From the NCBI GenBank assembly GCA_965208775.1, contig OZ242360.1:3145591-3209590 (forward strand): 64,000 bases of DNA. The letters are read 5' to 3'. The notes beneath the pieces are model-generated. The model was not told where the DNA came from. It saw only the letters and a program-made list of their open reading frames with translations, and made no database searches. This stretch comes from Chloroflexota bacterium. Its GTDB lineage: Bacteria; Chloroflexota; UBA11872; VXNJ01. Positions 23,338-45,970 of this stretch are shown here, piece by piece; the stretch's first letter is position 1; each line of letters opens with the position of its first letter. The translations under genes were made by a program, and so were the position numbers.

Positions 23338-25629
23338 TTAGGCGACACTCCGCCTTAACACGTTCAGGGCGGATCCGGCCCAAATCCACTCTATCTGCTG
23401 CTCGTTCAGCGTGTGCGCCAGCTCGATGGCGTGAGTTGAGCCGTTGGCGTGTCGAAGCACCGCGGTTACGGGTTCCCCCGGGGCCAGCTCGTGGATGTCG
23501 ACGAGGTCGATTCGGTCGGTTTTTTCGATCTTGTCGTAGTCGTCGGGATTGACGAACGTAAACGGGAGCAAGCCCTGTTTCTTGAGGTTCGATTCGTGGA
23601 TTCGCGCGAAGCTCCGCACGATGATCACGGAGCCGCCCAGGTGTCTGGGTGACATGGCCGCGTGCTCGCGGCTGCTGCCCTCGCCGTAGTTTTCATCACC
23701 GACGGCTACCCAGCGCAGCCCGTGCTTGTGGTAGGACTTGGCTATCTCGGGAATCGGCTCTTCGTCGGCCCCGGAAATCTGGTTGTAACCTGTCCCCGGT
23801 GTTGCCGAGAACGAATTGTTAGCGCCGGTGAACATGTTATCGCTGAGATTGGTCAGGTGCCCGCGGAACCGCAGCCACGGTCCCGCTGGGGATATGGCGT
23901 CCGTGGTGCACTGTCCGGCGGCCTTCAGCAGCACGGGCATGTCTTGAAAATGCTCCGGGGATTGCTCGGGAAACGGGTGGAGGATCTCCAGCCGCTTGCT
24001 CTCCGGATCGACCTTGATTTCGACCGACGACGCGTCGCCACTGGGAGGTTCGTATCCGTAGCCTTTACCGGTAAAGCCGTCGGCCGGGACTTCAGGCGCG
24101 GGAGCGGGAGGATCGAGCCGGAACCCGTCGGAGCCAGCGGATTCGATACGGTCGACTAGCGGGTTGAACGAAAGTCGCCCGGCCAACCCGTAAGCGACGG
24201 CGATCTCCGGGCTTACAAGAAACGAATGCGTGCTCGCGTTCCCGTCGTTGCGGCGGGGGAAGTTGCGGTTGAAGGACGAGATTATCGAATTGACCTTCAC
24301 GGGCCGACTCCCGTCCGGGCCGGCTTCCCGCCTGCGCCACTGCCCGATGCAGGGTCCGCAAGCGTTCGCGAGGACCGTCGCTCCAATCGATTCGAGGACA
24401 CCGAGTTGACCATCGCGCTCTATGGTCGCACGCACCGTTTCGGAGCCGGGCGTGACGAGCAGCGGAGTAACAGCCCGCGCGCCGCGCGCCGCGGCCTGAG
24501 CGGCGACATCGGCGGCACGTGAAACGTCTTCGTATGACGAGTTGGTGCAGCTTCCGATGAGCGCCGCGGAGAGCTCGTTCGGATAGCCATGAGCTTCGAC
24601 CTCCGCCGCCATCTCGGATACCGGCCGTGCCAGATCTGGCCGGTGCGGACCGACGACGTGCGGCTCAAGCTCGCTGAGATCGATTTCTATGACCTCTTGA
24701 TAGAACCGTGTTGGGGTCTCATTGACCTCCTCGTCCACGGTGAGCAGGTCGAGGGCCTGGCCGGCCAAGTCCGCCAGTTCACCGCGACCGGTGGCCCGCA
24801 GATAGGTTGCCATTCGTCCGTCGAAAGGAAATACGGAGCTTGTAGCGCCAAGCTCCGCGCCCATGTTGGTTATCGTCGCCTTGCCGGTGCAGGAGAGTGA
24901 TCGAGTTCCCGGACCGAAGTATTCGATAATCCGGTTCGTCCCGCCACTGGTCGTCAAAATCCCGAGTAGCTTTAGGATCACGTCCTTAGGCGCGGTCCAG
25001 CCGCTCAGCTCACCCGTGAGTCGTACGCCCACAACGTGCGGGTTCTTCACTTCCCACGGGAATCCGACCATCGCGTCGACTGCGTCGGCTCCACCGACGC
25101 CCACGGCCAGCATTCCGAGGCCGCCGGCGTTGGGCGTGTGCGAGTCGGTCCCGATCATCAGACCGCCGGGAAACGCGTAGTTCTCGAGTACCACCTGGTG
25201 GATTATTCCGGCACCCGGTCTCCAGAATCCGAGTCCGTACTTGCGGGAGACAGAGGCGAGGAACTGGAATACTTCGGCGTTCTCGGTGCGAGCGACGTGC
25301 AGGTCGGATGCGGACCCGTTGTGCGCGCGGATGAGGTGGTCGCAGTGAACGGTCGTCGGCACGGCCGCCTCGTCGCGGGCGGCCAGCATGAACTGGAGCA
25401 GCGCCATCTGTCCGGTCACGTCCTGGAGCGCAACCCGGTCCGGCCGAAGCTGCAAGTAACTGTCGCCGGGCGTCAGGTCGTCTCCGGATGGATCGTCCAG
25501 ATGGCCGAAGACGATTTTCTCGGCCAGAGTCAGCGGGCGTCCCAGGCGGGTCCGCACGATCTCCAACGTCTCACGCATCCGCGCGTAGATTCCCGCCACT
25601 AACTCGGGCGTCGACTCGATGGTTGGCAT
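23338..25629 (-). CDS. acnA: Aconitate hydratase (mitochondrial-like type)
   Basis: LRPDRVALQD, HCDHLI, GTDSHT, IGSCTNSSY, ACGPCIG, GSSREHAA; ATG at 25629 with SD. Confidence 0.95.
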   Translation of the reverse strand: MPTIESTPELVAGIYARMRETLEIVRTRLGRPLTLAEKIVFGHLDDPSGDDLTPGDSYLQLRPDRVALQDVTGQMALLQFMLAARDEAAVPTTVHCDHLIRAHNGSASDLHVARTENAEVFQFLASVSRKYGLGFWRPGAGIIHQVVLENYAFPGGLMIGTDSHTPNAGGLGMLAVGVGGADAVDAMVGFPWEVKNPHVVGVRLTGELSGWTAPKDVILKLLGILTTSGGTNRIIEYFGPGTRSLSCTGKATITNMGAELGATSSVFPFDGRMATYLRATGRGELADLAGQALDLLTVDEEVNETPTRFYQEVIEIDLSELEPHVVGPHRPDLARPVSEMAAEVEAHGYPNELSAALIGSCTNSSYEDVSRAADVAAQAAARGARAVTPLLVTPGSETVRATIERDGQLGVLESIGATVLANACGPCIGQWRRREAGPDGSRPVKVNSIISSFNRNFPRRNDGNASTHSFLVSPEIAVAYGLAGRLSFNPLVDRIESAGSDGFRLDPPAPAPEVPADGFTGKGYGYEPPSGDASSVEIKVDPESKRLEILHPFPEQSPEHFQDMPVLLKAAGQCTTDAISPAGPWLRFRGHLTNLSDNMFTGANNSFSATPGTGYNQISGADEEPIPEIAKSYHKHGLRWVAVGDENYGEGSSREHAAMSPRHLGGSVIIVRSFARIHESNLKKQGLLPFTFVNPDDYDKIEKTDRIDLVDIHELAPGEPVTAVLRHANGSTHAIELAHTLNEQQIEWIWAGSALNVLRRSVA

Positions 25630-25889
25630 TGCCCCTACCTCATTAAGCAAACGTGCGCTGTTTACAGAGTAAGCGTTTCGATTGGCGCACGGCCGCGCCA
25701 GTCTCCCAGTCTATCGCCTGCACGATATGACCTCAGGACCCAATGGACGTACCTTCTGCTATTCACAGTTCACCCAGTGCGAGTAATTTGACGCGGTCTC
25801 CCGCGAGCACAAACACCGCATGGATAGCGCGGGTATCATTTAGCCCGGCATCGTCCTAACTCACTATTTAACGGAACTTAACGGAACAA

Positions 25890-26975
25890 ATGACATATAG
25901 CGTCACACTAATTCCCGGCGATGGAACAGGCCCGGAAATCGCCGAGGCTATGCGCCGAGTCCTCGACGCGACCGGCGTCGAATTCGATTGGCAAATCCAG
26001 AACGCCGGAGCCGAAGTTGCGGAGAAGACCGGAGAGCCGCTGCCGGAGTCGGTACTAAATTCGATTCGAGAGAACAAACTTGCCATCAAGGGACCACTCA
26101 CAACTCCCGTGGGAACGGGCTTTCGCAGCGTGACCGTAGCCATGCGCAAAGAGCTGGACCTCTACGCATGCCTGCGTCCCTGCAAGATGTACAAGGGAGT
26201 TCGCTCGTTCTACGACGAGATCGATCTCGTGATCGTTCGAGAGAACACAGAAGACCTCTATGCGGGAATCGAGTTCGAGAGAGGATCCCAGGCCGCGTCG
26301 GACTTAATCCGACATCTGAGCAGCCTGAACGGATCGGCCATTCCGTCGGACTCGGGCATCAGCATAAAACCGATATCGGTAGAGGCTACGGACCGCATCG
26401 TCCGTTTCGCCTTCGACTACGCAATCGCGAACGGTCGCAAAAAGGTAACGGCCGTCCACAAAGCCAACATCATGAAGTTCTCGGACGGGCTGTTTCTCGA
26501 AGTTGCCCGCGACGTTGCGCGGGACTATCCCGAAGTCGAGTTCGAGGACCGGATCGTGGACAACATGTGCATGCAGCTGGTCCAAAAGCCGGAACTCTAC
26601 GACGTGATGGTCTTACCGAACCTGTACGGCGACATCGTTTCGGATCTGTGCGCCGGGTTGATTGGAGGACTCGGCGTCGCCCCGGGAGCGAATATCGGAG
26701 ACGACTTCGCGGTATTCGAGGCCACGCACGGGAGCGCGCCCCGCTATACCGGTATGAACAAAGTCAACCCGCTCGCCATGATCCTGTCGGGTCTAATGAT
26801 GCTGCGCCACATTGGCGAAACCGCCGCCGCCGACATGCTCGACAGCGCCATCGCGCGACTGATCGAAGCCGGCGATTCCGTGACGTACGATATGAAACCC
26901 CACCGCGACGACCCGACCGCGGTCGGTACGTCCGACGTTGCGGACGCGCTTATAAGGCTCATGCACGACGCTTGA
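25890..26975 (+). CDS. icd: Isocitrate dehydrogenase (isocitrate/isopropylmalate DH family)
   Basis: [47 protein letters not shown]; TCA context. Confidence 0.92.
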
Positions 26976-28105
26976 AGCTCCACGAATACCAGGCGAGAGC
27001 GCTGTTTGCCGAGGCCGGCATCCCTGTACCCGCGAGCAACGTAGCCTTCTCGGCCAGTGAGGCGAGAGAGATTGCGGAGCAGCTAGGCAAGCCGGTCGTC
27101 GTCAAAGCGCAGGTCCTGGTCGGCGGACGGGGCAAGGCGGGCGGAGTGAAACTGGCCCAGACTCCCGCCGCCGCGCAGGAAGCGGCGGATAAGATTCTCG
27201 GACTGACAATCGGTGGCTATCCGGTGGAGCAAGTGCTCGTCGCCGAAGCGTCGGATATAGAACGGGAGATTTATCTCGGCGCGATCGTCGACCGTGATGC
27301 GAAACGCATACTGCTCATGGTCAGCGGCGAGGGCGGAGTCGAGATCGAAGAGGTGGCGCGAACCAATCCGTCCGCCATTCACAGGGAGTACGTTCAACCG
27401 TCCGGCGTGCTGGAAGCTCAGCAGGGACGCCGCCTGGGGTTCATGCTTGGCCTCGACTGGAAGCAGGTCCGCAAGTTCGAGTCGATAGCCCGCTCGCTGG
27501 TGGAGCTTGCGGTGCGGATCGATGCCTCACTGGCGGAAATCAATCCATTGATCGTCACTCCGGAAGGCGACCTCCGGGCCATCGACGCCAAGGTGAATAT
27601 CGACGACAACGCGCTCTTCCGACGGCCGGAATTAGCCGGGCTTCGAAATCCCGAAGAGGAGACGGGGCCTGAGCGTCGGGCGCGAGAATCGGGCATCAGC
27701 TACGTCAAGCTCGACGGCAATATCGGCTGCATGGTCAATGGGGCGGGGCTGGCGATGGCGCTGCTCGACGTAATAAAGCTCCAGGGAGGCGAGCCTGCTA
27801 ACTTCCTGGACGTCGGAGGCGGAGCCGACGCCGCGCAAGTACGTACGGCGATGGAGATCATCCTCGCCGACCCGGCGGTGAAGCTGGTACTGGTGAACAT
27901 CTTCGGCGGGATTACCCGATGCGACGAAGTCGCGCGGGGCGTCGTCGCGGCGACTACCGGTCTGGACCGCGACGTTCCGCTGGTTGTCAGGTTGGTCGGA
28001 ACCAATGAAGAAGAGGGACTGGAAGTCCTCCGCGACGCTGGAATATCAGCGTATACCGGCATGGTCGACGCCGTGAACGAAGCGGTTAGTCGAGCGGCCG
28101 CTTGA
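26972..28105 (+). CDS. sucC: Succinyl-CoA synthetase beta subunit
   Basis: TTG start overlapping the icd stop: (M)[33 protein letters not shown]. Confidence 0.96.
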
Positions 28106-28974
28106 GCATCCTCGTCGACGCCGACACGCGAGTGCTCGTGCAGGGTATTACGGGCAATCAGGGTTCGTTTCATGCGCGGCTCATGCTCGACTACGGCTCC
28201 AACGTCGTGGCGGGTGTGGTGCCAGGACGGGGCGGGCAGTCAGTCCATGACGTGCCGGTGTTCGATACGGTCGAGGAAGCCGTCGACCGCACCCAGCCGA
28301 ACTGCGGAATAATCTTCGTACCCGCGTTCGCCGCGCCTGACGCGATTCTGGAACAGGCCGCCGCCAACATTCCCCTGATCGTCTGCATCACCGAGGGCAT
28401 TCCAGTGATCGACATGATTCCCGTCTGTCACCGGGTGAAGGCGGCGGGATCGCGTTTGATCGGACCGAACTGCCCGGGCGTGATATCGCCCGCGCACAAG
28501 GTCAAAGTCGGAATACTGCCCGGACAGATTCACATGCCCGGGCCGGTGGGGGTTGTCAGCCGCAGCGGAACGCTGACATACGAAGTAGTCCAGTCGCTTT
28601 CAGCTTCAGGCCTGGGACAGAGCACGTGCGTGGGGATAGGAGGCGACCCGATTATCGGCACGTCTTTTATCGACGTCGTAGACATGTTCGAGCGTGATCC
28701 GTCAACCGAAGCGATAGTCGTGATCGGTGAAATCGGCGGAACGGATGAAGAGCAGTGCGCCGAGCACATCGCCGCGAACGTGAGCAAACCCGTCCTTGCA
28801 TTCATCGCCGGGCGAACGGCCCCGCCGGAGAAGCGCATGGGGCACGCGGGGGCTATCGTTTCAGGGGGATCGGGAACGGCGACGGAAAAAATAGAGGCGT
28901 TCGAGCGCGCGGGCGTGCGCGTTGCGGCTATACCGGACGAAATCGCAGCCGCCGTTCGGTCTACGATTCCTTGA
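28102..28974 (+). CDS. sucD: Succinyl-CoA synthetase alpha subunit
   Basis: [20 protein letters not shown], phospho-His motif MGHAGA. Confidence 0.97.
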
Positions 28975-29108
28975 TTTTTCGCGATTGCGGCGGTGTGACT
29001 GGCAGCTTTTGGCAAAATCGACCAAAATCACCGGTGTCATCTTTCTAAGCTAATTGGTGGAGCATTTCTTGGCATGACGATCCGGCTGACGAAAGGCACG
29101 CGGCGCTG

Positions 29109-30794
29109 ATGCTCGAATTTGACGTGGTTGTTATCGGCGGCGGTGTTGCGGGTATGCGCGCGGCTCTGGCCGCTTCGGCATCCGCCGGGGTCGCGTTGAT
29201 ATCGAAGGATCATCCTGTCCGATCAGGTTCGACATCTTCGGGAGGCGGGATCAACGCGCCGCTCGATCCTTCGGACGATCTGGAAACTTATGCAACCGAC
29301 ACCGTTCGGGCGGGAGACTTTCTGTCGGAGAGGGATGCGGTCGAGACGCTTTGCGCGGATGCTGCGAGCGCCGTTATCGAGATGGAAAACAGCGGCGTCG
29401 CGTTCGACCGCGATCCGACCGGCCGCCTTGCGCTTCACAGGCTTGGCGGCACGAGCCGGTCCCGCGCGGCCCATGGCGCCGACTGGACAGGTGTTCTCCT
29501 GGCACAGACTCTCTGGGCAGAGCTTGTCAAAGCGGGCGTCACCGTTCTGGACGAATGGTATGTAACACGCTTGGTCGTGCGCGACGAGGAAGTACTGGGA
29601 GTGGTCGCAACGGACTTGCGGTCGGGCGAGCTGCACGCAGTCGGGGCCCGGGCGGTCATACTGGCGACGGGCGGTGCGGCGGGTGTTTACGAGATCAACA
29701 CAAGTCCAGTTTCCAACACCGCCGACGGCCTTGCGCTTGCATATCGCGAGGGACTTCCCTTGCGCGACATGGAGTTCGTTCAATTCAACCCTACGGGCCT
29801 TTACGCCGCCGGGAACGCGCTAGCCCGCGGGATATCGATAACCGAGGCGGCGCGGTCGCACGGATCGCTACTGCGCAATTCAGAGGGCGAGCGTTTCATG
29901 GAGCGCTACGCTTCCGAAAGCCTGGAGCTCGCGCCCCGCGACATCGTCTCCCGCGCGGTGCAGACCGAGATCGACGCAGGCCGCGGCGTAAACGGCGGGT
30001 GCGTGAGTCTCGACGCGAGCGGCAACGGGGATATGGCCTCCTCGCTGCCGAATTTCCAGCACCTCTGCGGGGACCTGCTTAATCTCGATCCGAGCGAGAA
30101 TCCTGTTCCCGTCGTTCCTTCCGCGCACTCCAGCGCGGGTGGAATACCCACCGACCTTGACGGCTCCACTGCGGTTGCCGGGCTTTATGCGGTGGGCGAA
30201 TGTGCAAGCACAGGAGTCCATGGAGCCGGTCCGCTGGCTGGAAACGGACTGGCCGAGGCGCTTGTCTTTGGCCGACTGGCCGGCAACGCAGCCGCCAACC
30301 GGGCATCGGAAGGAGTTCTCCACTTCGCTGACTTGAGCGCCGCGCGTGACGACGAGGCTGATCGAGTCGGTCGGTTGATGGCGCATCCCGGCGCGGAGAG
30401 GGTGTCGGCGCTGACGGGCGAAATGCGTTCGGTCATGTCATCTCACGTCGGAGTCTTCCGCGACGGCGAAGGGCTGGCGAGCGCTCGATTCGCTCTCGAC
30501 TCCATCTCCGAACGGCTCGCCGACATCGGCGTAAGCAGCAAGTCCAAGCGGTTCAACCTCGAAGTTAGGGCGGCGCTCGAGCTGCTCAACATGGTGGAGG
30601 TTGCTGGAGTCGTGATCGATAGCGCTGGCAACCGCACGGAGTCGCGCGGCAGTCACTTCAGGCGAGACCACGCGGAACGAGATGACGAGAACTGGCGACT
30701 CCACACACTCGCCTACAAAAACTGCGATGGGGCTCGAATCGAAACCGAAGAGCTGACAGCAAAGACCGACGATCCCGACGCGAGGGCTTATTAA
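29109..30794 (+). CDS. SdhA/FrdA/NadB-family flavoprotein with substituted active site
   Basis: GGGVAG, LATGG, MEFVQF, LAPRDIVSR and RTESRGSHFR are present, but RSG replaces RSH, QFNPT replaces QFHPT and HGAGPL replaces HGANRL. Confidence 0.85.
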   Translation: MLEFDVVVIGGGVAGMRAALAASASAGVALISKDHPVRSGSTSSGGGINAPLDPSDDLETYATDTVRAGDFLSERDAVETLCADAASAVIEMENSGVAFDRDPTGRLALHRLGGTSRSRAAHGADWTGVLLAQTLWAELVKAGVTVLDEWYVTRLVVRDEEVLGVVATDLRSGELHAVGARAVILATGGAAGVYEINTSPVSNTADGLALAYREGLPLRDMEFVQFNPTGLYAAGNALARGISITEAARSHGSLLRNSEGERFMERYASESLELAPRDIVSRAVQTEIDAGRGVNGGCVSLDASGNGDMASSLPNFQHLCGDLLNLDPSENPVPVVPSAHSSAGGIPTDLDGSTAVAGLYAVGECASTGVHGAGPLAGNGLAEALVFGRLAGNAAANRASEGVLHFADLSAARDDEADRVGRLMAHPGAERVSALTGEMRSVMSSHVGVFRDGEGLASARFALDSISERLADIGVSSKSKRFNLEVRAALELLNMVEVAGVVIDSAGNRTESRGSHFRRDHAERDDENWRLHTLAYKNCDGARIETEELTAKTDDPDARAY

Positions 30795-31552
30795 TGGCGG
30801 AACAACGACTCGGACTGCAGATAAGCAGGTACGATCCCGAAACGCACGACCGGCCTGAAGCGCGCAACTATGAGGTGGCGGTTGGGGAGTCGATGACCGT
30901 TCTCGACGCGTTGGTGTCGATACATGAAGAACAGGACTCGTCCCTGGCGATTCGTTACTCGTGCCGGGGCGGTGTCTGCGGAGCCTGCGGCGTACAGGTC
31001 AACGGCCTGCCCGTGCTGGCGTGTCGAACGCGCGTATCGTCCCTCGATTGCAACGGGTCCCCCGTCGAGATAGCCCCCTTGCAAAACCATCCGGTTATTC
31101 GGGACCTCGTCGCCGACTTCGATCCCACCTTCCTGACGCTCGGGGCGGGGGAGCCGTGGATTCAACCCGATGCAGGATCGCCCGGGAGCGGCATGGACTC
31201 GGACATGACGCAGGAGGAGGTTGACCGTCTGGGACGGTCCCAGGCGTGCATTTCCTGCGGTCTTTGCGACGCGGCCGTCACCGGCGCAAATGCGTCCGCG
31301 GGCTTCATCGGCCCGGCTGCGCTCGTTCGGGAGTTCCGGTTGGCGGCCGACGTGCGCGACGGGTCGGACCGGGACCGCCTCGAAAAGATCAACGACAGCG
31401 GCGGAATTTGGGACTGCGATCCCGACAAGTCGTGGGACGACGCTTGCCCCGTGGGAATAGACCCGGCAAACAAGATCGAACTGCTTCGAGAGGCTTCGAT
31501 TGCAAACAAGATCGCCGGTCGCAAACGAGTGGAGTCCGAAGCGGCCGCATAG
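30794..31552 (+). CDS. SdhB/FrdB-like Fe-S subunit lacking two [3Fe-4S] ligands
   Basis: SCRGGVCGAC...LAC (2Fe-2S), IRDLVAD, CISCGLCDAAV, CDPDKSWDDACP. Confidence 0.85.
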   Translation: MAEQRLGLQISRYDPETHDRPEARNYEVAVGESMTVLDALVSIHEEQDSSLAIRYSCRGGVCGACGVQVNGLPVLACRTRVSSLDCNGSPVEIAPLQNHPVIRDLVADFDPTFLTLGAGEPWIQPDAGSPGSGMDSDMTQEEVDRLGRSQACISCGLCDAAVTGANASAGFIGPAALVREFRLAADVRDGSDRDRLEKINDSGGIWDCDPDKSWDDACPVGIDPANKIELLREASIANKIAGRKRVESEAAA

Positions 31553-31618
31553 AGTAATGCGAAAAAGCCCGGAAGGGCGTCTTCACGGCTATACAAGAAG
31601 ACTGATGCGGAGGGGTTT

Positions 31619-32548
31619 TTGGCACGCACCAAGGTAACTATTGCGGGCGCTGGGCAGACGGGAGGATCTATCGCCCGTCGGGTAGCCGAGAGAGGTTATG
31701 CCGACGTCGTGATGATCGACGTAGTCGAGGGATTTGCCGCTGGCAAGGCGCTCGACCTCAATCAGACCGGCCCGCTGATGGGGTATCCACCGAACCTGAT
31801 CGGATCCACGGGCTATGACGAGTCCGAGAACTCCGACATTTGCGTAATCACGTCGGGGTTTCCGCGTCAGCCCGGAATGTCGCGGGACGACCTCCTGCTG
31901 AAGAATAAAGAGATCGTCGAGGACGTAGCAGGCCGGCTTGCCGAGAAGTCTCCCGACTGCAAGTTCATCGTACTGACCAATCCGGTCGACGCCATGGCCC
32001 AGCTCGTCCACTCCGTAACGTCGTTTTCCAAGGAGCGCGTGATAGGACAGGGCGGCATTCTGGATTCGGCGCGGTATCGAACGTTCATCGCCTGGGAACT
32101 GGGCGTATCGCCTGAAGACGTGTCGGGATTCGTTCTCGGAGGGCATGGGGACGCGATGGTGCCGGTGCCTCGTTACACGTCCGTGGCGGGTGTCCCCGTC
32201 GGCGAGCTGCTGCCCCAGGACCGCCTCGACGCGATTATCCAGAGGACGCGGGACGGGGGAGCCGAGATCGTAAAGCTCCTGCAGCGCGGCAGCGCCTACG
32301 AAGCTCCGGGCGAGGCCGTGATGCTGATGATCGATTCGATTGTCCTGGACCAGAAGCGGCTGTTCCCATGCTCGGTCCTGCTCGAAGGCGAATATGGGAT
32401 AAACGGCACGTTTGTGGGTGTGCTGGTGAAGCTGGGGGCGCAAGGTTACGAGGGGATGATCGACGTTTCCTTGACCGAGGAAGAGCTGGCTGCTTTACAT
32501 AAATCTGCGGACGGTGTGCGGGAGCTCGTGGAGATAATGGGCGTCTGA
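31619..32548 (+). CDS. mdh: Malate dehydrogenase (LDH-like)
   Basis: GAGQTG, PRQPGMSRDDL (MDH Arg), LDSAR, GGHGD, GSAY. Confidence 0.95.
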   Translation: MARTKVTIAGAGQTGGSIARRVAERGYADVVMIDVVEGFAAGKALDLNQTGPLMGYPPNLIGSTGYDESENSDICVITSGFPRQPGMSRDDLLLKNKEIVEDVAGRLAEKSPDCKFIVLTNPVDAMAQLVHSVTSFSKERVIGQGGILDSARYRTFIAWELGVSPEDVSGFVLGGHGDAMVPVPRYTSVAGVPVGELLPQDRLDAIIQRTRDGGAEIVKLLQRGSAYEAPGEAVMLMIDSIVLDQKRLFPCSVLLEGEYGINGTFVGVLVKLGAQGYEGMIDVSLTEEELAALHKSADGVRELVEIMGV

Positions 32549-32640
32549 CCGCGACTCCCGGCAGATAGAATCGAACGGCCCCCTGATAACCGGTCGCGGC
32601 CCGGTTGATTATGATCCCGCGAAGCAAAGGATATGAATTG

Positions 32641-34053
32641 ATGGCAACACGGACTGAGCGCGATCCGCTCGGCGAAGTCGAGGTCCCGTCCGAAGCCTTA
32701 TACGGCGTTCAGACTCAGCGTGCGGTCGATAATTTCCCAATCAGCGCAATCGGTCCGCATCCGGCGTTCGTCTGGGCGACGGTGCTCATCAAGAAGGCCG
32801 CGGCCGTTACGCATCGTGAGACGGGACGCCTAGATCCGACGCTTGCCGACGCGATCATCCGGGCCGCGGATGAGGTGCTCGACGGGCTGCACGGCGATCA
32901 GTTCGTGGTCGACGTGTTCCAGGCCGGGGCGGGCACGTCGCACAACATGAACGCGAACGAATTGCTGGCCAATCGCGCGAACGAGCTGTTGGGCGGATCG
33001 CGCGGCGACTACGATCCCGTGCATCCCAACGACCATGTAAACATGGCGCAGTCGACCAACGACATCATCCCGACCGCCATCGCACTCGCCGCGCTGCGTC
33101 TCTTGCAGCCGCTCTACGAGGCGCTTGACGGACTTGCCGACTCGCTGGAGCAGAAGTCGGAGGAATGGGACGGCATCGTCAAGTCTGGCCGGACGCACGT
33201 GCAGGACGCCACCCCGGTCCGGCTGGGACAGGAGTTCGGGGCCTACGCAGTCGCCGTGCGCCGGGGTCGTGAGCGAATCGCCGCAGCGGAAGTAGATGTC
33301 CAGGAGCTGAGCATCGGAGGGACTGCCGTGGGAAGCGGTCTCAACGCGGAGCCTCGGTATCAGGAGCGGGTTGTCGAGGTGCTGGGCGAGCTGAGCGGTC
33401 TGACCGTGCGGCGTTCCGAAAACCTGTTCTACTCGATGCAGAGCATGTCGCGGTTCGCGATGCTGTCGGCGGCGCTCAAGGCGCTTGCGGTCGACCTGGG
33501 CAAGCTGGCCAACGATATCCGCCTACTGGGATCGGGACCTCGCACGGGGATTTCCGAGATCAGGATGCCGGCGGTCCAGCCGGGTTCGTCGATCATGCCG
33601 GGCAAGGTCAACCCGGTGATGGCCGAGTGCCTGAACATGATCTGCTTTCAGGTTTTCGGAAACGACCTCGCTGTCACGATGGCGGCAGAGGCCGGGCAGC
33701 TTCAGTTGAACGTGATGATGCCGGTCATAGCCCACAACCTCTCGCAATCGATCGACATCCTGGCGAATGGCTGCAAGCAGTTCCACGAGCTAGGCGTCCG
33801 CGGTCTGGAGCCGGACGGAACGATGATCCGCCACTGGCTGGAGCGCAACACCATGCTGGCGACGGCCCTGGCGCCAAGAATCGGTTACGCGGCGGCGGCG
33901 GAAATCGCCAAAGAAGCCGTCCGCACGGGCGAGAGCATCCCCGACGTAGCCAAACGGATGACCGACCTCCCCGAAGACGAGCTGGCGAGTGCGCTCGACC
34001 CCGCGCCCATGACTGAACCGGGCGTTCGCGCGGGTGGTGGAGGCGGCGGTTAA
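32641..34053 (+). CDS. Class II fumarase/aspartate ammonia-lyase family
   Basis: YGVQTQRA, HPNDHVN, STND, GRTH, signature GSSIMPGKVNP; context suggests fumarase. Confidence 0.9.
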   Translation: MATRTERDPLGEVEVPSEALYGVQTQRAVDNFPISAIGPHPAFVWATVLIKKAAAVTHRETGRLDPTLADAIIRAADEVLDGLHGDQFVVDVFQAGAGTSHNMNANELLANRANELLGGSRGDYDPVHPNDHVNMAQSTNDIIPTAIALAALRLLQPLYEALDGLADSLEQKSEEWDGIVKSGRTHVQDATPVRLGQEFGAYAVAVRRGRERIAAAEVDVQELSIGGTAVGSGLNAEPRYQERVVEVLGELSGLTVRRSENLFYSMQSMSRFAMLSAALKALAVDLGKLANDIRLLGSGPRTGISEIRMPAVQPGSSIMPGKVNPVMAECLNMICFQVFGNDLAVTMAAEAGQLQLNVMMPVIAHNLSQSIDILANGCKQFHELGVRGLEPDGTMIRHWLERNTMLATALAPRIGYAAAAEIAKEAVRTGESIPDVAKRMTDLPEDELASALDPAPMTEPGVRAGGGGGG

Positions 34054-34101
34054 GCGTCGTCGAACGGCGGGGCTAAAGCTGGCCGCTGATCCGAGTAATC
34101 G

Positions 34102-35586
34102 CTACCAGGGCCAGACCTGAGGCTCGCCCGGGTCCATATCGAGCGTCCAGGCCTCAAACGACCTGCTGATTAGCTCGTTGCGAATCGGGTCCCGACCGGG
34201 CTCAAGCCAAAGATCGTCGAATTCGTGCGGGTCGTTTTGGAGATCGAAGAGCTCGCCCAAACCGGCGCCGTGATAACAGACAAGCTTCCAGCGCTCGTCG
34301 CGGTACATCGTGGCGTAGGCGGGTCGTCCGTCCGCGGAATGGTAGAAGTACTCGCACCGCACGAAGTCCTTGTGGTGATCGGGGGGCGCGCTGCCCGTGA
34401 GAATGGGCAACAGCGACCGTCCCTGAACGTGGGCGGGAACGGGCAGACCGCTGATCTCCAGAAGAGTCGGGACGATATCGACAAGCTCGACCAAGGCGTT
34501 GCTCTGCAGCCCCGCCGTCGCTCCCGCGGGCCAGGACCACAGCAGGGGCACTCGCACAAGTCCTTCGTAAAACCGCGCTCCCTTCATCACCAGCCCATGG
34601 TCGCCCAGCGCCTCACCATGATCGCTTGTGAAGATGATTACGGTGTTTTCGCGCAGACCGGCCGATTCGAGCCAGTCCAACAGCCGTCCTATTTCACAGT
34701 CGATCAGCTCGATCATCGCGTAGTAAGCGGCTTTTAGCTGGCGGGCTCTGATCACGTCGAGCGGGTACGGTCCCACGGCAAATGGGACTTGCGCTAAACG
34801 CTCCTGCCGGTGGAGATCGCTTTCGCGAAAGGGGGGATCGCTCAACGTCTCCGGCGGATAACGCTTGTAGTAGTCCCAGGGAGGATCCGAGGGAGGATGC
34901 GGGTCGAACGCATTGACGCTGAGGAACCAGGGGCGCTCGCGGGGCTGGGATATGAACTCGATAGCCTTGTCGGTACACCACCTGGTCTGGTGCAGCTCCG
35001 GCGGCGCATTATCCGAACCGGGCGTGGGTACCTTTAGTCCAGCCCATCCGTTGTCAGGAGTTACCACCCTCAAACCGGGCGAGTCGTATGTGTCGATTGC
35101 GTCAACGGGATCGTGGCCCTGAAGCCGTACCCATTCGAGGTATGAGTCGCCTTCGGGCCAGTATCGATACGGCATGTGGCTGTATTGGAAATAGTCGAAG
35201 CCGTCGTCGCGGCGGTTCTCGGGTCCGTTGTGCGCGCCTGCCAGGTGCAGCTTGCCGATCAGACCGCAGTCGTAACCGGCGTCGGACATGATACGGCTTA
35301 TGAGTTTGTCGACAAGGCTCGCGGGGTAGGTCTCGCACCCGTTGCGAATGACGTGATTGGCGCTCGGGTACATTCCGGTCAAGAAGCTGGCACGGCTCGG
35401 CGTGCATACGGGGTTCTGGCAATAGGCATGGGTGAAAGCCGCGCCCTCGGCCGCCAGCCTGTCGAGATGGGGCGTGCGAATCTCGGAATTTCCGAGAGCG
35501 GCTATTGTGTCAAAACGCTGCTGATCGGTGCAATACAGCAGTATGTTCGGACGCTCGTTAGAGCCGCCTTGGCCGGAGCCCGCCAC
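34102..35586 (-). CDS. Cys-type sulfatase, no signal peptide seen
   Basis: PNILLYCTDQQR, CTPSRAS, GKLH, PHPP, SDHG. Confidence 0.93.
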   Translation of the reverse strand: MAGSGQGGSNERPNILLYCTDQQRFDTIAALGNSEIRTPHLDRLAAEGAAFTHAYCQNPVCTPSRASFLTGMYPSANHVIRNGCETYPASLVDKLISRIMSDAGYDCGLIGKLHLAGAHNGPENRRDDGFDYFQYSHMPYRYWPEGDSYLEWVRLQGHDPVDAIDTYDSPGLRVVTPDNGWAGLKVPTPGSDNAPPELHQTRWCTDKAIEFISQPRERPWFLSVNAFDPHPPSDPPWDYYKRYPPETLSDPPFRESDLHRQERLAQVPFAVGPYPLDVIRARQLKAAYYAMIELIDCEIGRLLDWLESAGLRENTVIIFTSDHGEALGDHGLVMKGARFYEGLVRVPLLWSWPAGATAGLQSNALVELVDIVPTLLEISGLPVPAHVQGRSLLPILTGSAPPDHHKDFVRCEYFYHSADGRPAYATMYRDERWKLVCYHGAGLGELFDLQNDPHEFDDLWLEPGRDPIRNELISRSFEAWTLDMDPGEPQVWPW

Positions 35587-35657
35587 CTTCTACGCCGCCC
35601 TCGCAAGCGACGCCGGAACGGGGACGTCTGCGGTCTCGGAACGGTGGGGCGGCACGG

Positions 35658-36548
35658 CTATCCCTTTATTCCCGTCAGCGTCACGCCCTGCGTGAAGTAG
35701 CGCTGCGCGAAGCCGAATACGACCACCATGGGCGCGACGGAAGCGAAAGCCGCGGCCATCATGAGGTTCCAGAACTGGATGTCCTCGCCCGTCGCGTCGA
35801 TCATGGCGCTAAGGGCGATGCTTATCGTCCATTTCGTCCTGTCGGTCAGAAAGACGAGCGGGTAGAGGAAGTCGTTCCAGACGTTGGCAAACGCGAATAT
35901 GCCGATAGCGATCAGCACCGGCCTCGAGAGCGGCACCATGATTTGCCACCAGATCCTGAATTCCGACGCGCCGTCGACTCTGGCGGCGTCGGAGAGCTCC
36001 TGTGGAATCGTCCTATAGAACTGCCGAACGAAGAAGATGAAATAAGGCGTGCCGAAGAAGGCCGGCACGATCAGCGGCAGAAACGTGTTGACCCAGCCCA
36101 TCCACTTGAAGAGCAGAAACGTCGGAAGCAGCCTGACGGCCAGCGGGACGATCATCGTGCTGATCATGACTATGAAGAGGAAGTTCCGTCCTGGCGCGCG
36201 CAGCCGTGCAAAACCGTAAGCGACGAAAGAGGCCGACAGAATATCACCGACGATCACGAGCGCTGAGATCAGCGTCGTGTTGAAGAAGTATTGATGGAAC
36301 GGCAGGAAGGTTAGCGCCTCAACGTAGTTTTTCCACACAACCGGCGTGGGAATGTAGACGGGCGGGTAGCTTTCAACCTGAGTGGCTTCCTTGAGCGACG
36401 TCGACGCCATCCACAGGAACGGCAGGGCGAAGACAAACGCCACAATGAGAAGAACAAAATGGATGGCGGCGTGGCGCCCCACTCCGGGCGCGGACTGGAA
36501 TAGTCCGCGCCGGACGTGCGTGGCGATTACCGCGACTCGATCACTCAT
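35658..36548 (-). CDS. Carbohydrate ABC transporter permease (MalG-like)
   Basis: YGFARL, EAA loop ELSDAARVDGA, WNDF, FTQG. Confidence 0.93.
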   Translation of the reverse strand: MSDRVAVIATHVRRGLFQSAPGVGRHAAIHFVLLIVAFVFALPFLWMASTSLKEATQVESYPPVYIPTPVVWKNYVEALTFLPFHQYFFNTTLISALVIVGDILSASFVAYGFARLRAPGRNFLFIVMISTMIVPLAVRLLPTFLLFKWMGWVNTFLPLIVPAFFGTPYFIFFVRQFYRTIPQELSDAARVDGASEFRIWWQIMVPLSRPVLIAIGIFAFANVWNDFLYPLVFLTDRTKWTISIALSAMIDATGEDIQFWNLMMAAAFASVAPMVVVFGFAQRYFTQGVTLTGIKG

Positions 36549-37471
36549 GTCTCGTAGTGCACCCAGTGCCGGCTTGTGCCGAACGTAATTCCGGTTACGG
36601 CGAGCACCAAAACGAACAGCACCGTCGCCATTGCCGACGCGTAGCCCATCTCAAAGTTCTTGAAGGCGTAACGGTAGAGATAGAGGACGTAGAAGAGCGT
36701 TGAATTCAAAGGCCCGCCCCGCGTCATGATGTACGCGAAGGTGAAAACCTGGAAGTGGGTAACGAGACCGATCACGAGCAGAAAGAAGGTCGTCGGGCTG
36801 AGCATGGGAATCGTTACGTGCCACATGCGCCGCAGGACGTTGGCCCCGTCGATGGACGCCGCTTCGTACAGGTGGGTCGGAATATTCTGCAAGCCCGCCA
36901 GCATGATCACCATCGTCTGACCGACATACCAGAACGAGAGCAGAATTATTCCGGGCTTTGACCAGTTCTCGTCTTGAAACCAGAGCGGGCTTGGAATTCC
37001 GAAGATGTCCAACAGGTGCTTGACCACGCCCAGCTCCGCGTGCAGCAGCCACAGGAAAATCACCGATGCCGCAGCGTGCGGCACGATCATGGGTAGATAG
37101 AACAGCGTTCGGTAGGCGCCTCTGCCATGAATACGGGTGTTGAGGAACATCGCGAGCGTGAACGCGATCAAAAGCTGTCCGGGCACGGATATCACGACGA
37201 AGTAGATGGTATTGAGCAGCGTGATGGTGAAAAGGCGGTCGTCGGTGAAGATCCCGACGTAGTTGTCCAGCCCAACCCACAGCGGCGCCTTGAAAACGTT
37301 GTAGCGCGTGAAGCCAAGATAGAAGACGGCCACGATGGGGCCGGCGGTAAACACCAGGAACCCCAGAAGCCACGGCGAAAGGAACGTATAGCACCAGAGG
37401 GCCTCTCGCTGGCCCGCCGACAGGCGGACTCTGCCGCTCGCCCTAGGCGCGGGAGCGCCTACAGTCGCCAT
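36545..37471 (-). CDS. Carbohydrate ABC transporter permease (MalF-like)
   Basis: WVGLDNY, LYEAASIDGA, MGYASA. Confidence 0.93.
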   Translation of the reverse strand: MATVGAPAPRASGRVRLSAGQREALWCYTFLSPWLLGFLVFTAGPIVAVFYLGFTRYNVFKAPLWVGLDNYVGIFTDDRLFTITLLNTIYFVVISVPGQLLIAFTLAMFLNTRIHGRGAYRTLFYLPMIVPHAAASVIFLWLLHAELGVVKHLLDIFGIPSPLWFQDENWSKPGIILLSFWYVGQTMVIMLAGLQNIPTHLYEAASIDGANVLRRMWHVTIPMLSPTTFFLLVIGLVTHFQVFTFAYIMTRGGPLNSTLFYVLYLYRYAFKNFEMGYASAMATVLFVLVLAVTGITFGTSRHWVHYET

Positions 37472-37593
37472 GGCATGGTCCGCCCCGGGTCGGCTACGCC
37501 GATAGATCCCTTAAGCGCCCGCTGATACACGGCCGCGGCGCAACTCTCAGAAATCGAAGGCAGTGTTGGTTACAGAAGGGTTCGACGCTATAT

Positions 37594-39144
37594 CTAGCCT
37601 CGCTGCTCCCACCACTTGTCAACTTCCTTCTGGGACTCGGTGGCGCCCCATTCGACGGCATCCTCGGGCGTGCGCTTGTGCAGCAGGGCCTCTTCCTGCA
37701 TCTGAATCGTGATATCGTTCAGCTTCTCTTGAACTGGCGATGCCGGGGAATGGACACTTAGTTCCATTACTTCGAGCGCGAGTTTCCATTCGTCCGGGAA
37801 CTCCTCGCCGAAGCGCGGGTCCTTATTGAATTCCTTAACCGGCGACGGTCTGACCTGTGGGATAAAGAACTCGCGGTTGCCTTCGTCGGTCGTGGTCCAT
37901 TTGAGAAACTCCCAGGCCCCGTCGGGATTTTTCACGCCGGTCGGAATGGCGTATCCCCACCCGCCTTCGACAACGTATTGGGTCTTGGCCGCCGGATTCC
38001 GGTCGTTGTAAGGAACGTGGGCGACTCCCCAATCGACGTCGGGAGCCTGAGCTCCCATGATCAGGAACATCCAGATACCGTCGAAAAGGCTCGACACCTT
38101 GCCTTCGAGGAAGGAGTTGCGGAATGCCGAGCCTCCGCCCACGATTGGCCGGACGTTCTCGAATCCGCCGTAGGTCGTGTCATAGAAATCGATGAGCCAG
38201 CGCAGCGCGCCCTTGCCCTCGTCCGAGTTGTAGAGCACCTGCTTACGGTCGGGGCTGCTGATGAGTCCGTTGTTCATAAAGGTCCACGCGCGGAACCAGT
38301 AGTTCGAGCGGACACCGCCGAGCAGCGGATCGACGCCGACTCGCTCGACCTTGTCGCCATCGAGCACCGTCAGCTTTTCCGCCGCTTCTTCCAACTCGCT
38401 CCACGTTTGCGGCTGCATGTCGGGATCGAGGCCCACTTCCTGTGCTTGGGCTTTATTCCAGAAGAACAGGTTCACATTGGTGCTCGTGGAAAACGGAGCG
38501 GCGAACATCTTGCCGTCCCACGTGTAGACGTCGACCTCGTAGTCGAACCAAGTGTCCTTGGAAATGTTGTCGATTCGCAGCAACTCGTCGATCGGCGTCA
38601 GCACGCCGTTGTCGGAGAATGCTACTAGGTGACGCTGGCCGTGGAGCATGATCACGTCGGGCGGATCGCCGCCGGCGATCGCGGTGAGGTACTTCTCGTC
38701 CATACCTGTTTGCGAGATGAGCGTGTGCCTGACTTTGATGTGGGGGTTCCGCTCCTCGAATCCCGCCGCCTGGGCCTCAATCAGCGGTAAGCGAGGACCG
38801 CCCCAAACGTGCCAATAGGTCACCGCCTGCGCCTTGACCATGGGCGCGGCTTCCCGAACAACCTTGGTGACGACTTTCTCGACGACCGTCTCTTTTTCGA
38901 CTTCGACGACCCTCTCGACCTCTACGACTTTCTCGACTTCCTTTTCGACCTCGACGGGGACTTCCTTGACGACCTCCCTTGTCACGACCCGCTCGACCGG
39001 CACTTCCTTGGTGACGACTTCGACGACCCGCTCGGTGACTGTCTGCACCTCGCCGCATCCGGCGATTGCAGCAGTGGCGAGTCCTAGACCGCCCGCCGAT
39101 CCGATAAGAAACTTGCGACGCAATATCTGGTTACGCGAGTTCAT
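37594..39144 (-). CDS. Family-1 sugar-binding Tat lipoprotein with V/E/K-rich linker
   Basis: RRKFL, lipobox IAGC, repeat linker, AIAGGDPPDV, GGWGYAIP, AWEFLKW. Confidence 0.9.
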   Translation of the reverse strand: MNSRNQILRRKFLIGSAGGLGLATAAIAGCGEVQTVTERVVEVVTKEVPVERVVTREVVKEVPVEVEKEVEKVVEVERVVEVEKETVVEKVVTKVVREAAPMVKAQAVTYWHVWGGPRLPLIEAQAAGFEERNPHIKVRHTLISQTGMDEKYLTAIAGGDPPDVIMLHGQRHLVAFSDNGVLTPIDELLRIDNISKDTWFDYEVDVYTWDGKMFAAPFSTSTNVNLFFWNKAQAQEVGLDPDMQPQTWSELEEAAEKLTVLDGDKVERVGVDPLLGGVRSNYWFRAWTFMNNGLISSPDRKQVLYNSDEGKGALRWLIDFYDTTYGGFENVRPIVGGGSAFRNSFLEGKVSSLFDGIWMFLIMGAQAPDVDWGVAHVPYNDRNPAAKTQYVVEGGWGYAIPTGVKNPDGAWEFLKWTTTDEGNREFFIPQVRPSPVKEFNKDPRFGEEFPDEWKLALEVMELSVHSPASPVQEKLNDITIQMQEEALLHKRTPEDAVEWGATESQKEVDKWWEQRG

Positions 39145-39177
39145 CTTCTACCTCCTCATCGCCGGCAATCCGACAGC

Positions 39178-39510
39178 CTACTCTTTCAAGACCAGATAGA
39201 TAATCAGCTTCACTTCCGGATCGGAGCCGTCGAGCTCCGCGCGCAGGCGGAGCCACCCTCCGAATTCCCGGAGCTTTATCGAGTAAAGACCTTCCTCGCG
39301 CATGACGGGCAACTCAGTCCCCTCGTCGATCCAAAACATGCCGTCCGGGGAAATCTGCGCGCTAGCCCTAAGCTCGGCGCCTTGTCTCATGTTGAGTATT
39401 CGGACGAACCATCTGGCTTCCGACGCCCAGGCGCACTCGTGCGGCTCGGTGTCGAAACTCGAAGTGAAGATCGAGTTTCGTTCGACCACCGCAGTGTGCG
39501 AAGTTCTCAT
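39178..39510 (-). CDS. Small conserved hypothetical protein, beta-rich
   Basis: 110 aa, 5 nt from the upstream gene; TEPHECAWASEA, ISPDG..W, FGGWLR motifs recalled from neighbours of DUF6772 genes. Confidence 0.7.
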   Translation of the reverse strand: MRTSHTAVVERNSIFTSSFDTEPHECAWASEARWFVRILNMRQGAELRASAQISPDGMFWIDEGTELPVMREEGLYSIKLREFGGWLRLRAELDGSDPEVKLIIYLVLKE

Positions 39511-39515
39511 GCTCG

Positions 39516-40469
39516 CTACCAGTCAGCCGAAACAAGCAATGAATCGACGTAAAGGAAATTGCGCACCGGCACGCGCGTGCGAACGTTGATTTCGAGATTC
39601 AACAGCCGGGCCAGCCCCCAATACGGGGAATCGTGCACCGGAACCGGGATGTCGCGTAGGTCCATGACCTTGTCGTTGACTTGAAGCTCGACATTGCGAC
39701 CCCTGCCGATGTCAAACACCCACCGCAGGTAGTGCCAGTTCACTTTGGACGGAATCTCGTTGTAGCAGAGCGGCTGATATCCATCGGGAACGTCCTCCCA
39801 GTCCGCCGGGTCCTGCACCTGGAAGTCCTCGAGCGGACGGTCGAGATAGTCGTCGGGAAACATGTCTCTGATCGTCCTGCGCGTTACCTGCAGCGACGTC
39901 TTGTATTTCCAACGCCGAATCAAGTTGCCCTGAGCATCGGCGTTGACGTAGCGAAGCGCGCAGTGAGTTCGCCGTCCCTCGTCGTCGATTTGAATGTCGT
40001 TACCGATCATGATGTCGCCGAACTGCGCTTCCGAGGGATGGAAGTTTCCATCCCATTCCCGTCCGCCTTCGGGCACCGGCTCGAAGTTCCATTCGGACTT
40101 GTAGCTGAAGTACATCTCCATTTGCACCGGCCCAAGGTCTTGCCACGTGAGTCGCTTGCACATTACCGCCATATGGTCGGGAACGGGCCGGGTAGCAGCC
40201 TTGAGGGCGTATGTACCCGACATCGGCCCGTGCGTGCCCTGGTCGAAGTACGTGCACGTGCTCAACTGGGCGGGATGAAAGTCACGGACGTAGCGGGCCA
40301 TGTTGTCGAGATTTCCGTCTGTGTTGCCGATCAGCTCGCACCAGCCGTTGACGCCGTTGTCGAAGTCGTCGAAGCACAGGATTCGCGGGAGGGGATTGAA
40401 CTTGCTCAGCTTCGGATCGGCCCGAAGCAACGCCAGCCTGAGGGCGTCTGCATCGATCACTCGGCGCAC
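39516..40469 (-). CDS. DUF6772-like protein of unknown function
   Basis: DPKLSKFNPLPRILCFDDFDNG, GTHG...GTYALK, KVNWHYLR; family recognised from memory. Confidence 0.65.
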   Translation of the reverse strand: MRRVIDADALRLALLRADPKLSKFNPLPRILCFDDFDNGVNGWCELIGNTDGNLDNMARYVRDFHPAQLSTCTYFDQGTHGPMSGTYALKAATRPVPDHMAVMCKRLTWQDLGPVQMEMYFSYKSEWNFEPVPEGGREWDGNFHPSEAQFGDIMIGNDIQIDDEGRRTHCALRYVNADAQGNLIRRWKYKTSLQVTRRTIRDMFPDDYLDRPLEDFQVQDPADWEDVPDGYQPLCYNEIPSKVNWHYLRWVFDIGRGRNVELQVNDKVMDLRDIPVPVHDSPYWGLARLLNLEINVRTRVPVRNFLYVDSLLVSADW

Positions 40470-40524
40470 CTCCCGCCTTCAAGTCGTTGGGGCTGCGAGA
40501 GTACCACACACTCCCCCAAGAATG

Positions 40525-41424: not shown

Positions 41425-41609
41425 CACTGCAAGCTCCTGCAAGGGCAACTCTTAAGTTCGAGCCGAGATCCCGCCAGAGTGTACCCAAGACGGAGACCAG
41501 GACGAGGCGGCCTGGGATACTATTTCCCGGCTATGGCAGTGCTAAATCACGAGTACCGGGTGGTTTTGGCTGATTGCGGCGCGCCCGCCGAGTCGAGAGG
41601 CCGTCTTCC

Positions 41610-43141: not shown

Positions 43142-43164
43142 CGGTCGGCAAGGAGGCTTTGGCG

Positions 43165-44334: not shown

Positions 44335-44391
44335 TTCGGCGCAGGTGGTTGCCCGCTTGTTTGCCGCTCGTCTATTTTTGATTATCGACAA

Positions 44392-45921: not shown

Positions 45922-45970
45922 CAGGCGGGCCGGGACTCGACATCATTGGCACAGCAAAAGGAGACAGGAA

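Follow-up and report, generated by a model that had tools for sequence, protein, structure and literature searches.

Between sucD and mdh, in a tricarboxylic acid (TCA) cycle operon of a Chloroflexota bacterium, lie two genes that resemble those for the flavoprotein and iron-sulfur subunits of succinate dehydrogenase, which we call sdhA' and sdhB' (products SdhA' and SdhB', together A'B'). They sit in a 64,000-nucleotide stretch of contig OZ242360.1 (positions 3,145,591 to 3,209,590), referred to here as the window. The pair is an extra paralogue and not the organism's succinate dehydrogenase or respiratory complex II; a complete FrdABCD-type complex is encoded elsewhere in the genome, and the window pair is thus an additional copy, either an accessory enzyme or a relic. 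Judging from its sequence, we lean towards the view that A'B', which derives from the catalytic subunits of complex II, is still a soluble, cytoplasmic redox enzyme whose pocket has been remodelled and which has no connection to quinone.

A loss of the quinone connection is suggested by the cluster ligands of SdhB'. A HMMER alignment to E. coli SdhB (1NEK_B) places C152, C155, C158 and C218 of SdhB' on C149, C152, C155 and C216, with all four [4Fe-4S] ligands present, while V162 falls on C159, C208 on C206 and W214 on C212, with two of the three [3Fe-4S] ligands gone. The window protein has nine of the 11 cluster cysteines, an incomplete complex II set. Among ten SdhB' sequences (the window protein and P0001-P0009, 60-93% identical), position 162 is V in nine and A in one, position 214 is W in all ten, and P0009 additionally has R at position 208. 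Where the co-resident canonical FrdB reads CTFVGECSVVCP, in a region that is hydrophobic in canonical subunits, SdhB' carries the acidic stretch CDPDKSWDDACP. A Pfam scan matched SdhB' to Fer2_3 (8.5e-31) and found no Fer4 family match and no CCG domain; of the NCBIfam models only the generic dhsB subfamily TIGR00384 was passed (182.8 against a cut-off of 88), and none of the equivalogs. SdhB' is therefore predicted to be able to ligate [2Fe-2S] and [4Fe-4S] clusters, and not a [3Fe-4S] cluster. A first-pass annotation of this DNA had described a complete [2Fe-2S] motif, retained [4Fe-4S] ligands and the changes of C159 to V and C212 to W, and our alignment agrees with it exactly; the survey of homologues that it proposed found the cysteine losses conserved in 10 of 10 close sequences.

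The same annotation saw an altered A subunit to match these losses, and this also holds, with G40, N227 and P375 standing at the places of H45, H242 and R399 of E. coli SdhA. SdhA' matches the Pfam families FAD_binding_2 (8.6e-88) and Succ_DH_flav_C (5.6e-35), the former named for flavin adenine dinucleotide (FAD), and it falls under every NCBIfam cut-off, the best model being the subfamily TIGR01812 (553.2 against 567.3) and the equivalogs being far under theirs. Its residues were aligned with those of 1NEK_A (E. coli SdhA), of the co-resident paralogue and of five orthologues, and position 40 proved to be G in five of six SdhA' orthologues and A in the sixth, N227 was found in all six, and position 375 was P in four and S in two. 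T254, E255, R286 and H354 (E. coli SdhA numbering) are still present. The full dicarboxylate-binding and catalytic set is thus lacking in SdhA', which has T254, R286 and H354 and not H242 or R399. There is also a six-residue insertion after the PTGL motif, the Arg of which is N in two of the six orthologues. According to the portions of PMC5773532 that deal with these residues, H232, H355 and R390 of the FrdA flavin domain, together with T244 and R287 of the capping domain, align and activate fumarate, and mutation of H232 in E. coli FrdA abolished both activities (PMC5773532). As two dicarboxylate-orienting residues are lost from SdhA', ordinary fumarate or succinate chemistry is doubtful. 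As for the flavin, the covalent linkage is described in PMC9557727 as increasing the potential of FAD; homologues that bind FAD non-covalently can, by the same account, reduce fumarate but not oxidise succinate. Neither SdhA' nor SdhB' has a signal peptide or a transmembrane segment.

The window lies within a single 3.24-Mb contig (estimated completeness 95%), and about 75 kb upstream, outside the window, there is a second, complete frdABCD operon. Its frdA encodes 597 residues with the RSHT (FAD histidine), FHPTG and GANRLG motifs, its frdB encodes 258 residues with all 11 cysteines and passes the PRK12385 equivalog (344 against a cut-off of 333), and its anchors are FrdC (PF02300, 5.5e-30) and FrdD (PF02313, 8.7e-23). 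This frdA and sdhA' are the only two full-length FAD_binding_2 genes in the genome, and anchor subunits were found only in the frdABCD operon, with none at the sdhA'B' locus. A reading of the window pair as the organism's succinate dehydrogenase consequently fails, given a complex with 11 cysteines, the FAD histidine and both anchors, and the first-pass statement that no membrane anchor is encoded stands for the locus and not for the genome. The ORFs (open reading frames) flanking frdABCD resemble, by eye, alternative complex III genes. We also considered a type E anchor (the CCG-domain SdhE) and rejected it, since CCG domains occur in just two proteins of the genome, one GlcF-like and one a LutB-LutA fusion. 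The latter (G000:C1:557309-559510; L031) has 733 residues and combines LUD, a 4Fe-4S dicluster and two CCG domains.

At the locus itself (Table 1) the gaps of 134 nt and 66 nt on either side of the pair, reported in the first-pass annotation, agree with the ORF coordinates. The TAA stop of sdhA' shares one base with the ATG of sdhB' (TAATG), and the two genes are predicted to be translationally coupled. A promoter and terminator scan of 25600-34300, including the gap between sucD and sdhA', gave nothing above the shuffled expectation, and the 26 flanking ORFs that were scanned held no ferredoxin, cytochrome or other plausible redox partner. A search for sequencing runs containing this DNA listed three, all from one study, and none of RNA. 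Separately, the region 34102-46819, with two sulfatases, a sugar-type ABC transporter, a DUF6772 protein, an enolase-superfamily enzyme and a 3-hydroxyisobutyrate-dehydrogenase-like gene, suggests a locus for the use of sulfated glycans.

Table 1. Positions, within the window, of the TCA genes and of the sdhA'B' codons and motifs considered here
Feature	Position	Strand	Remarks
acn	23338-25650	minus	TCA cluster of the window
icd	25890-26975	+	Pfam matches
sucC	26972-28105	+	Pfam matches; start located separately
sucD	28102-28974	+	Pfam matches
sucD-sdhA' gap	28975-29108		134 nt, no space for an anchor gene
sdhA'	29109-30794	+	561 residues; SdhA/FrdA-type flavoprotein paralogue, non-covalent FAD predicted
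codon G40	29226-29228	+	place of the 8-alpha-histidyl-FAD ligand, E. coli SdhA H45
codon N227	29787-29789	+	place of the substrate-orienting His, E. coli SdhA H242 / FrdA H232
codon P375	30231-30233	+	place of the carboxylate-binding Arg, E. coli SdhA R399 / FrdA R390
sdhB'	30794-31552	+	252 residues; SdhB-type iron-sulfur subunit
[2Fe-2S] motif C57-x4-C62-x2-C65...C77	30962-31024	+	intact; invariant in 10/10 sequences
CISCGLCDAAV	31247-31279	+	three [4Fe-4S] Cys kept; fourth Cys ([3Fe-4S] ligand) is V, next Pro lost
CDPDKSWDDACP	31415-31450	+	C208 kept; W214 for the second [3Fe-4S] Cys; C218-P219 kept (C218 is a [4Fe-4S] ligand)
sdhB'-mdh gap	31553-31618		66 nt, no space for an anchor gene
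mdh	31619-32548	+	product above TIGR01763
class II fumarase/aspartase-family lyase	32605-34053	+	above PRK12273, below fumC_II

The pair is conserved over a narrow range of organisms. A word-indexed search over 5.8 billion proteins returned nine close homologues of SdhB' (60-93% identity) and then dropped to proteins of at most 41% identity with Pfam Fer4 domains. In five of five related Chloroflexota loci the gene order acn|icd-sucC-sucD-A'-B'-mdh-lyase is identical, all five related genomes tested carry both SdhB types (B' and canonical FrdB), and the place of the pair within the operon is shared by four genera of a single Chloroflexota family; these related genomes are not independent samples. 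The ratio of non-synonymous to synonymous substitution rates (dN/dS) is 0.12-0.16 for A' and 0.12-0.22 for B', compared with 0.04-0.19 for neighbouring genes, and A' and B' evolve faster than each neighbour (57% and 62% identity in the most distant locus, L011, against 75-83%).

To place these genes we surveyed 57 genomes of the order, which fall into two families (f1 and f2), with coded genera g1 to g8, g1 being the genus of the window. A second gene of the B' kind is present in five of five g1 genomes (71-100% identical), in the single genomes of g3 (61%) and g2 (45%) and in six of seven of g5 (39-44%), while none was found in the five g4 genomes and no second SdhB in the 38 genomes of the sister family f2. 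Invariant positions make up 47% of A' and 41% of B' within g1 and g3. Among them are N227, T245, E246, R249, R277 and H340 of A' (six of six sequences) and the eight remaining cluster cysteines and W214 of B' (ten of ten); that such residues do not vary, though over half of all positions do, speaks for continuing selection on the cofactors and on what is left of the active site in these two genera, and for a working enzyme. In g2 and g5 the position sucC-sucD-A''-B''-mdh is kept (we write A'' and B'' for these copies), with a complete second sdhAB immediately downstream on the opposite strand. Here B'' has lost three [2Fe-2S] cysteines in g2 and all four in g5, and also the [3Fe-4S] cysteines, except for the C208 equivalent in one g5 copy (L029), and retains CxxCxxC...CP. 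A'' of g2 lacks T254, E255, R286, H354 and R399, and A'' of g5 also lacks H242 and has a capping-domain deletion. In these two genera dN/dS is 0.19-0.31 for A'' and 0.10-0.17 for B'', with 0-4 gapped codons. The cofactor features that no orthologue of g1, g2, g3 or g5 has changed are limited to the four [4Fe-4S] cysteines, the glycine motifs for FAD binding and ESRGxHxRxD at the C-terminus. One g4 genome has sucD directly beside mdh, with no pair between them.

The pair thus looks like it is on a stepwise loss trajectory, of which the window's genus is the least degenerate member. The first-pass annotation had proposed the pair as a candidate for an undescribed system; with g2 and g5 orthologues stripped further and one g4 site empty, we see a loss series and not a finished system. 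The complete succinate dehydrogenase beside the degenerate pair in g5 (L026-L029) has an iron-sulfur subunit of the PRK12386 type (371 bits against a cut-off of 256). Unlike g5, g1, g2 and the sister family have an FrdABCD-type complex II, and in four sister-family genomes the sole succinate dehydrogenase is of the frdABCD type, 68-74% identical to the canonical copy and away from sucCD. As the complete enzyme of g5 is of another type, the functional complex II appears to have been exchanged within the family. It could be argued that the series merely records a pair of decaying pseudogenes, the frames of which stay open by chance in GC-rich DNA, as would fit the faster divergence, the stepwise loss of functional residues and the empty g4 site. 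We consider this most improbable, however, as dN/dS is 0.10-0.31 at dS of up to 1.9, there are only 0-4 gapped codons over 520-560 codons, translational coupling is kept and the cluster ligands are invariant.

A predicted structure speaks to whether the two proteins could still form a dimer. A model of the A'/B' complex scored an ipSAE of 0.94 (0.93-0.95 in three runs), compared with 0.01 for the best control, with at least 91% of contacts common to the runs and a partner pLDDT of at least 86; the ipSAE mark applied is reached by 116 of 157 solved complexes and two of 215 mismatched pairs. Residues 162 and 208-218 of B', the former [3Fe-4S] site, are outside the modelled interface, and residues 219-220 are within it. 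The A'/B' interface is therefore retained in sequence, although this does not imply binding itself and the score may reflect likeness to solved complex II. The modelling check that the first-pass annotation had suggested is in this way answered in part: an interface is predicted, with that likeness as a possible source of it.

How might such a dimer work? Without a [3Fe-4S] cluster and without an anchor, A'B' should be unable to hand electrons to quinone, and with a non-covalent and so low-potential FAD it should not oxidise succinate efficiently; the non-covalent FAD points instead to reductase chemistry. We put the chances as about even that the mechanism in the window's genus, the most likely of those considered, is that of a low-potential reductase. 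In such an enzyme 1) electrons would enter at a solvent-facing [4Fe-4S] cluster from a soluble donor; 2) they would then pass from [4Fe-4S] to [2Fe-2S] and on to FAD; and, 3) the FAD would reduce a fumarate-like substrate, bound otherwise than fumarate is in complex II. The chain FAD-[2Fe-2S]-[4Fe-4S] would end at an acidic surface, which fits solvent exposure. An obvious candidate donor would be ferredoxin reduced by the genome's single 2-oxoacid:ferredoxin oxidoreductase, which is of the POR_N type (alpha subunit G000:C1:2794788-2795504); with no 2-oxoglutarate dehydrogenase E1 C-terminal domain found in the genome, reduced ferredoxin is a plausible donor. A'B' would then be accessory to the FrdABCD-type complex about 75 kb away and not its replacement. 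The first-pass idea of a soluble FAD-[2Fe-2S]-[4Fe-4S] module with a different redox partner therefore survives in its first half, which the sequence fits, while no alternative partner was identified. As an observation apart, a ferredoxin-dependent 2-oxoglutarate step is suggested in what is apparently an aerobic organism (CtaG at 12131-12979 of the window; alternative complex III-like ORFs).

Several points weigh against the redox enzyme that we favour. The changes H242N and R399P/S remove two of the three dicarboxylate-orienting residues of the flavin domain, and no compensating basic residue is conserved among the six SdhA' orthologues, the Arg of the insertion being variable. No candidate partner gene is conserved beside the pair in the related loci, and the acidic surface expected around the lost cluster would disfavour an acidic ferredoxin. 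Moreover, purifying selection still acts on the g2 and g5 copies although they lack [2Fe-2S] ligands and most or all of the catalytic residues, so that the role selected there cannot be electron transfer from FAD to the clusters, and g1 could share that non-redox role. Taken with the loss of H242 and R399, the state of these orthologues argues that canonical fumarate chemistry is impaired or dispensable. A second explanation, the main rival though in our view distinctly less probable, takes this further and makes A'B' a non-catalytic pseudo-enzyme in the window's genus as well, structural or regulatory, and needing only its fold, FAD binding and the [4Fe-4S] cluster. It could, for example, associate with the co-transcribed TCA enzymes or serve as a redox or oxygen sensor, with the catalytic residues and the [2Fe-2S] cluster as relics. 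That the glycine motifs, ESRGxHxRxD and the four [4Fe-4S] cysteines are the sole cofactor features invariant in g1, g2, g3 and g5 is consistent with this explanation, as are the constraint and the few indels in the stripped g2 and g5 copies and the speed at which A' and B' outpace every neighbour. However, in g1 and g3 six residual active-site residues and the four [2Fe-2S] cysteines are invariant while over half of the positions vary, and the free replacement of these same residues in g2 and g5 marks them as structurally dispensable.

The distribution of genes for quinolinate synthesis across the order raises the question of a different substrate. The quinolinate synthase NadA is present in 56 of 57 genomes, and NadB scores above TIGR00551 in only 12, namely those of g2 (one of one), g4 (four of five) and g5 (seven of seven), with none in g1 (zero of five) or g3 (zero of one). 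NadX (PF01958) is absent from all 19 genomes of family f1 and occurs only in 25 sister-family genomes. It is conceivable, if unlikely, that in g1 and g3 A'B' substitutes for L-aspartate oxidase or dehydrogenase and makes iminoaspartate for NadA, its electrons leaving via the iron-sulfur subunit. The better-preserved A'B' and NadB are complementary within the family, the own genome offers frdA and A' as its only full-length FAD_binding_2 genes, A' is predicted to be soluble and to bind FAD non-covalently, like NadB, and the downstream lyase scores as aspartate ammonia-lyase subfamily. Stated more broadly, and with just as little likelihood, A'B' in g1 and g3 might be an iron-sulfur-wired dehydrogenase of L-aspartate, or of another C4 amino or hydroxy acid, derived from complex II, which would feed NadA or aspartate metabolism and pass electrons from FAD through [2Fe-2S] and the exposed [4Fe-4S] to a soluble carrier. 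If this were true, acquisition of NadB in sister genera would have left the pair free to decay, which would explain the loss series. Against this, A' scores 365.5 against the nadB cut-off of 452.75, much as this genome's ordinary FrdA does (372 bits), and it has N and P in place of the residues that we take to be H244 and R386 of NadB. By our own reading of the alignment, A' has Leu at the place that presumably belongs to the amino-group-binding Glu of NadB. Furthermore, NadB needs no iron-sulfur partner, the complementary pattern amounts to only one or two evolutionary events among related genomes, and 13 sister-family genomes (g6, g7 and 11 of 12 of g8) have NadA without NadB, NadX or A'B', so that the order manages without any of them. 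The NadA of the window's genome is at G000:C1:1077713-1078663 (L107). The lyase downstream of mdh passes PRK12273 (610 against 510), fails fumC_II (492 against 665) and is the genome's only FumaraseC_C-bearing gene, and no class I fumarase was found in the genome. The gene may encode the TCA fumarase with a different name; otherwise aspartate would be the route by which the cycle closes.

It might also be asked whether A'B' docks on FrdC/FrdD and works as an alternative respiratory complex II, since those anchors exist in the genome and B' is homologous to FrdB (5e-37 to 1KF6_B). This we regard as very improbable. Given the known geometry of complex II, a chain that stops at [4Fe-4S], with [3Fe-4S] missing, would end at too great a distance from the quinone site for physiological electron transfer. 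In addition, the stretch of B' that would face anchor and quinone is acidic (CDPDKSWDDACP) and not hydrophobic, and B' and the co-resident FrdB fall into separate SdhB lineages.

This difference in lineage comes from a quick maximum-likelihood tree of 56 SdhB rows (nine B', five B'', five co-resident copies and 37 others, the last being every third of 111 matches, P0010-P0120), with SH-aLRT support only and a midpoint root. B' and B'' form one clade (support 95), which is sister (SH-aLRT 96) to SdhBs of about 320 residues of the PRK12576/PRK12577 kind and not to the co-resident FrdB. Because its sister is another kind of SdhB, the pair is not a recent duplicate of the resident frd operon, although the exact placement is uncertain with such long branches. 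When a B'/B'' profile was searched against 1.84 billion representative proteins, only three clusters of this clade were found; among the 150 best SdhB-like representatives, 129 have retained the full set of 11 cysteines. Four unrelated ones (P0198, P0224, P0263 and P0255) combine complete cysteine sets for [2Fe-2S] and [4Fe-4S], four each, with two or three [3Fe-4S] positions that are not Cys, calls which rest on single columns of one MAFFT alignment, and NCBIfam gave them no specific family beyond the generic dhsB model. On a 3.5-kb metagenome contig (L032) a relative of P0224 (76% identical; 519-1211) lies behind sdhA; next come genes for a regulator of the GntR type and for a class III aminotransferase, and the contig encodes no anchor. 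A metagenome scan with P0224 gave 68 loci, of which three are close relatives on short contigs and 65 are not [3Fe-4S]-less; of these 65, 60 have Cys at all called positions (six with Asp at the third [2Fe-2S] position) and five are truncated. The P0263 family was not found in 401 Chloroflexota genomes, where P0263 had one weak match of 42% identity. SdhB proteins without the [3Fe-4S] cluster would thus seem to arise repeatedly.

The practical consequence is that automatic annotation would name sdhA'B' the succinate dehydrogenase of the TCA operon and lead to wrong metabolic reconstructions for these Chloroflexota, the respiratory enzyme being the FrdABCD-type complex elsewhere in the genome. 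Beyond this, the orthologues offer a natural series in which a complex II dimer sheds its quinone link, covalent flavin, parts of its active site and [2Fe-2S] cluster under purifying selection, and so a tractable case for what a complex II module can be reused for. We found no description of an anchorless SdhAB without [3Fe-4S] ligands in the full-text literature, subscription papers and supplements being outside the search, and the soluble homologues named in the consulted part of the Iverson review are flavocytochrome c, yeast Osm1 and NadB only.

Among known systems, the complex II dimer (E. coli SdhAB and FrdAB; 1NEK, 1KF6) has the two-subunit architecture and the folds of A'B'. The matches are to 1NEK_A for A' (2.3e-104) and, as given above, to 1KF6_B for B'; the [2Fe-2S] and [4Fe-4S] ligands, T254, E255, R286, H354 and the predicted A/B interface are kept. 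It differs from that dimer in having no covalent-FAD His, in H242N and R399P/S, in the loss of two of three [3Fe-4S] ligands, in the lack of a dedicated anchor and in falling under all equivalog cut-offs. The type E-like SdhBs (about 320 residues, PRK12576/PRK12577-like) are the nearest sister group of the B'/B'' clade; unlike B', they keep all cluster cysteines and a C-terminal extension, and the CCG-domain SdhE anchor was not found in the window's genome. A'B' can also be likened to the methanogen TfrAB, which is soluble, derived from SdhA and SdhB, anchorless and served by an electron donor other than quinone. However, TfrB has about 490 residues with C-terminal CCG (HdrD-like) domains while B' has 252 and none, B' scores 119.9 against 385 on NF004898 (profile positions 4-220 of 488), and A' scores 408 against the TfrA cut-off of 718. 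NadB comes from the flavoprotein family of A' and, as predicted for A', is soluble, binds FAD non-covalently and behaves like a reductase (PMC9557727), but it has no iron-sulfur subunit, keeps the His and Arg that A' lost, and has a model whose cut-off A' does not reach. Finally, P0198, P0224, P0263 and P0255 are like B' in combining [2Fe-2S] and [4Fe-4S] cysteines with [3Fe-4S] positions that are not Cys, but other residues replace the cysteines, the gene context is another, and they are separate 50%-identity representatives with scores far under those of the three clusters of the B'/B'' clade.

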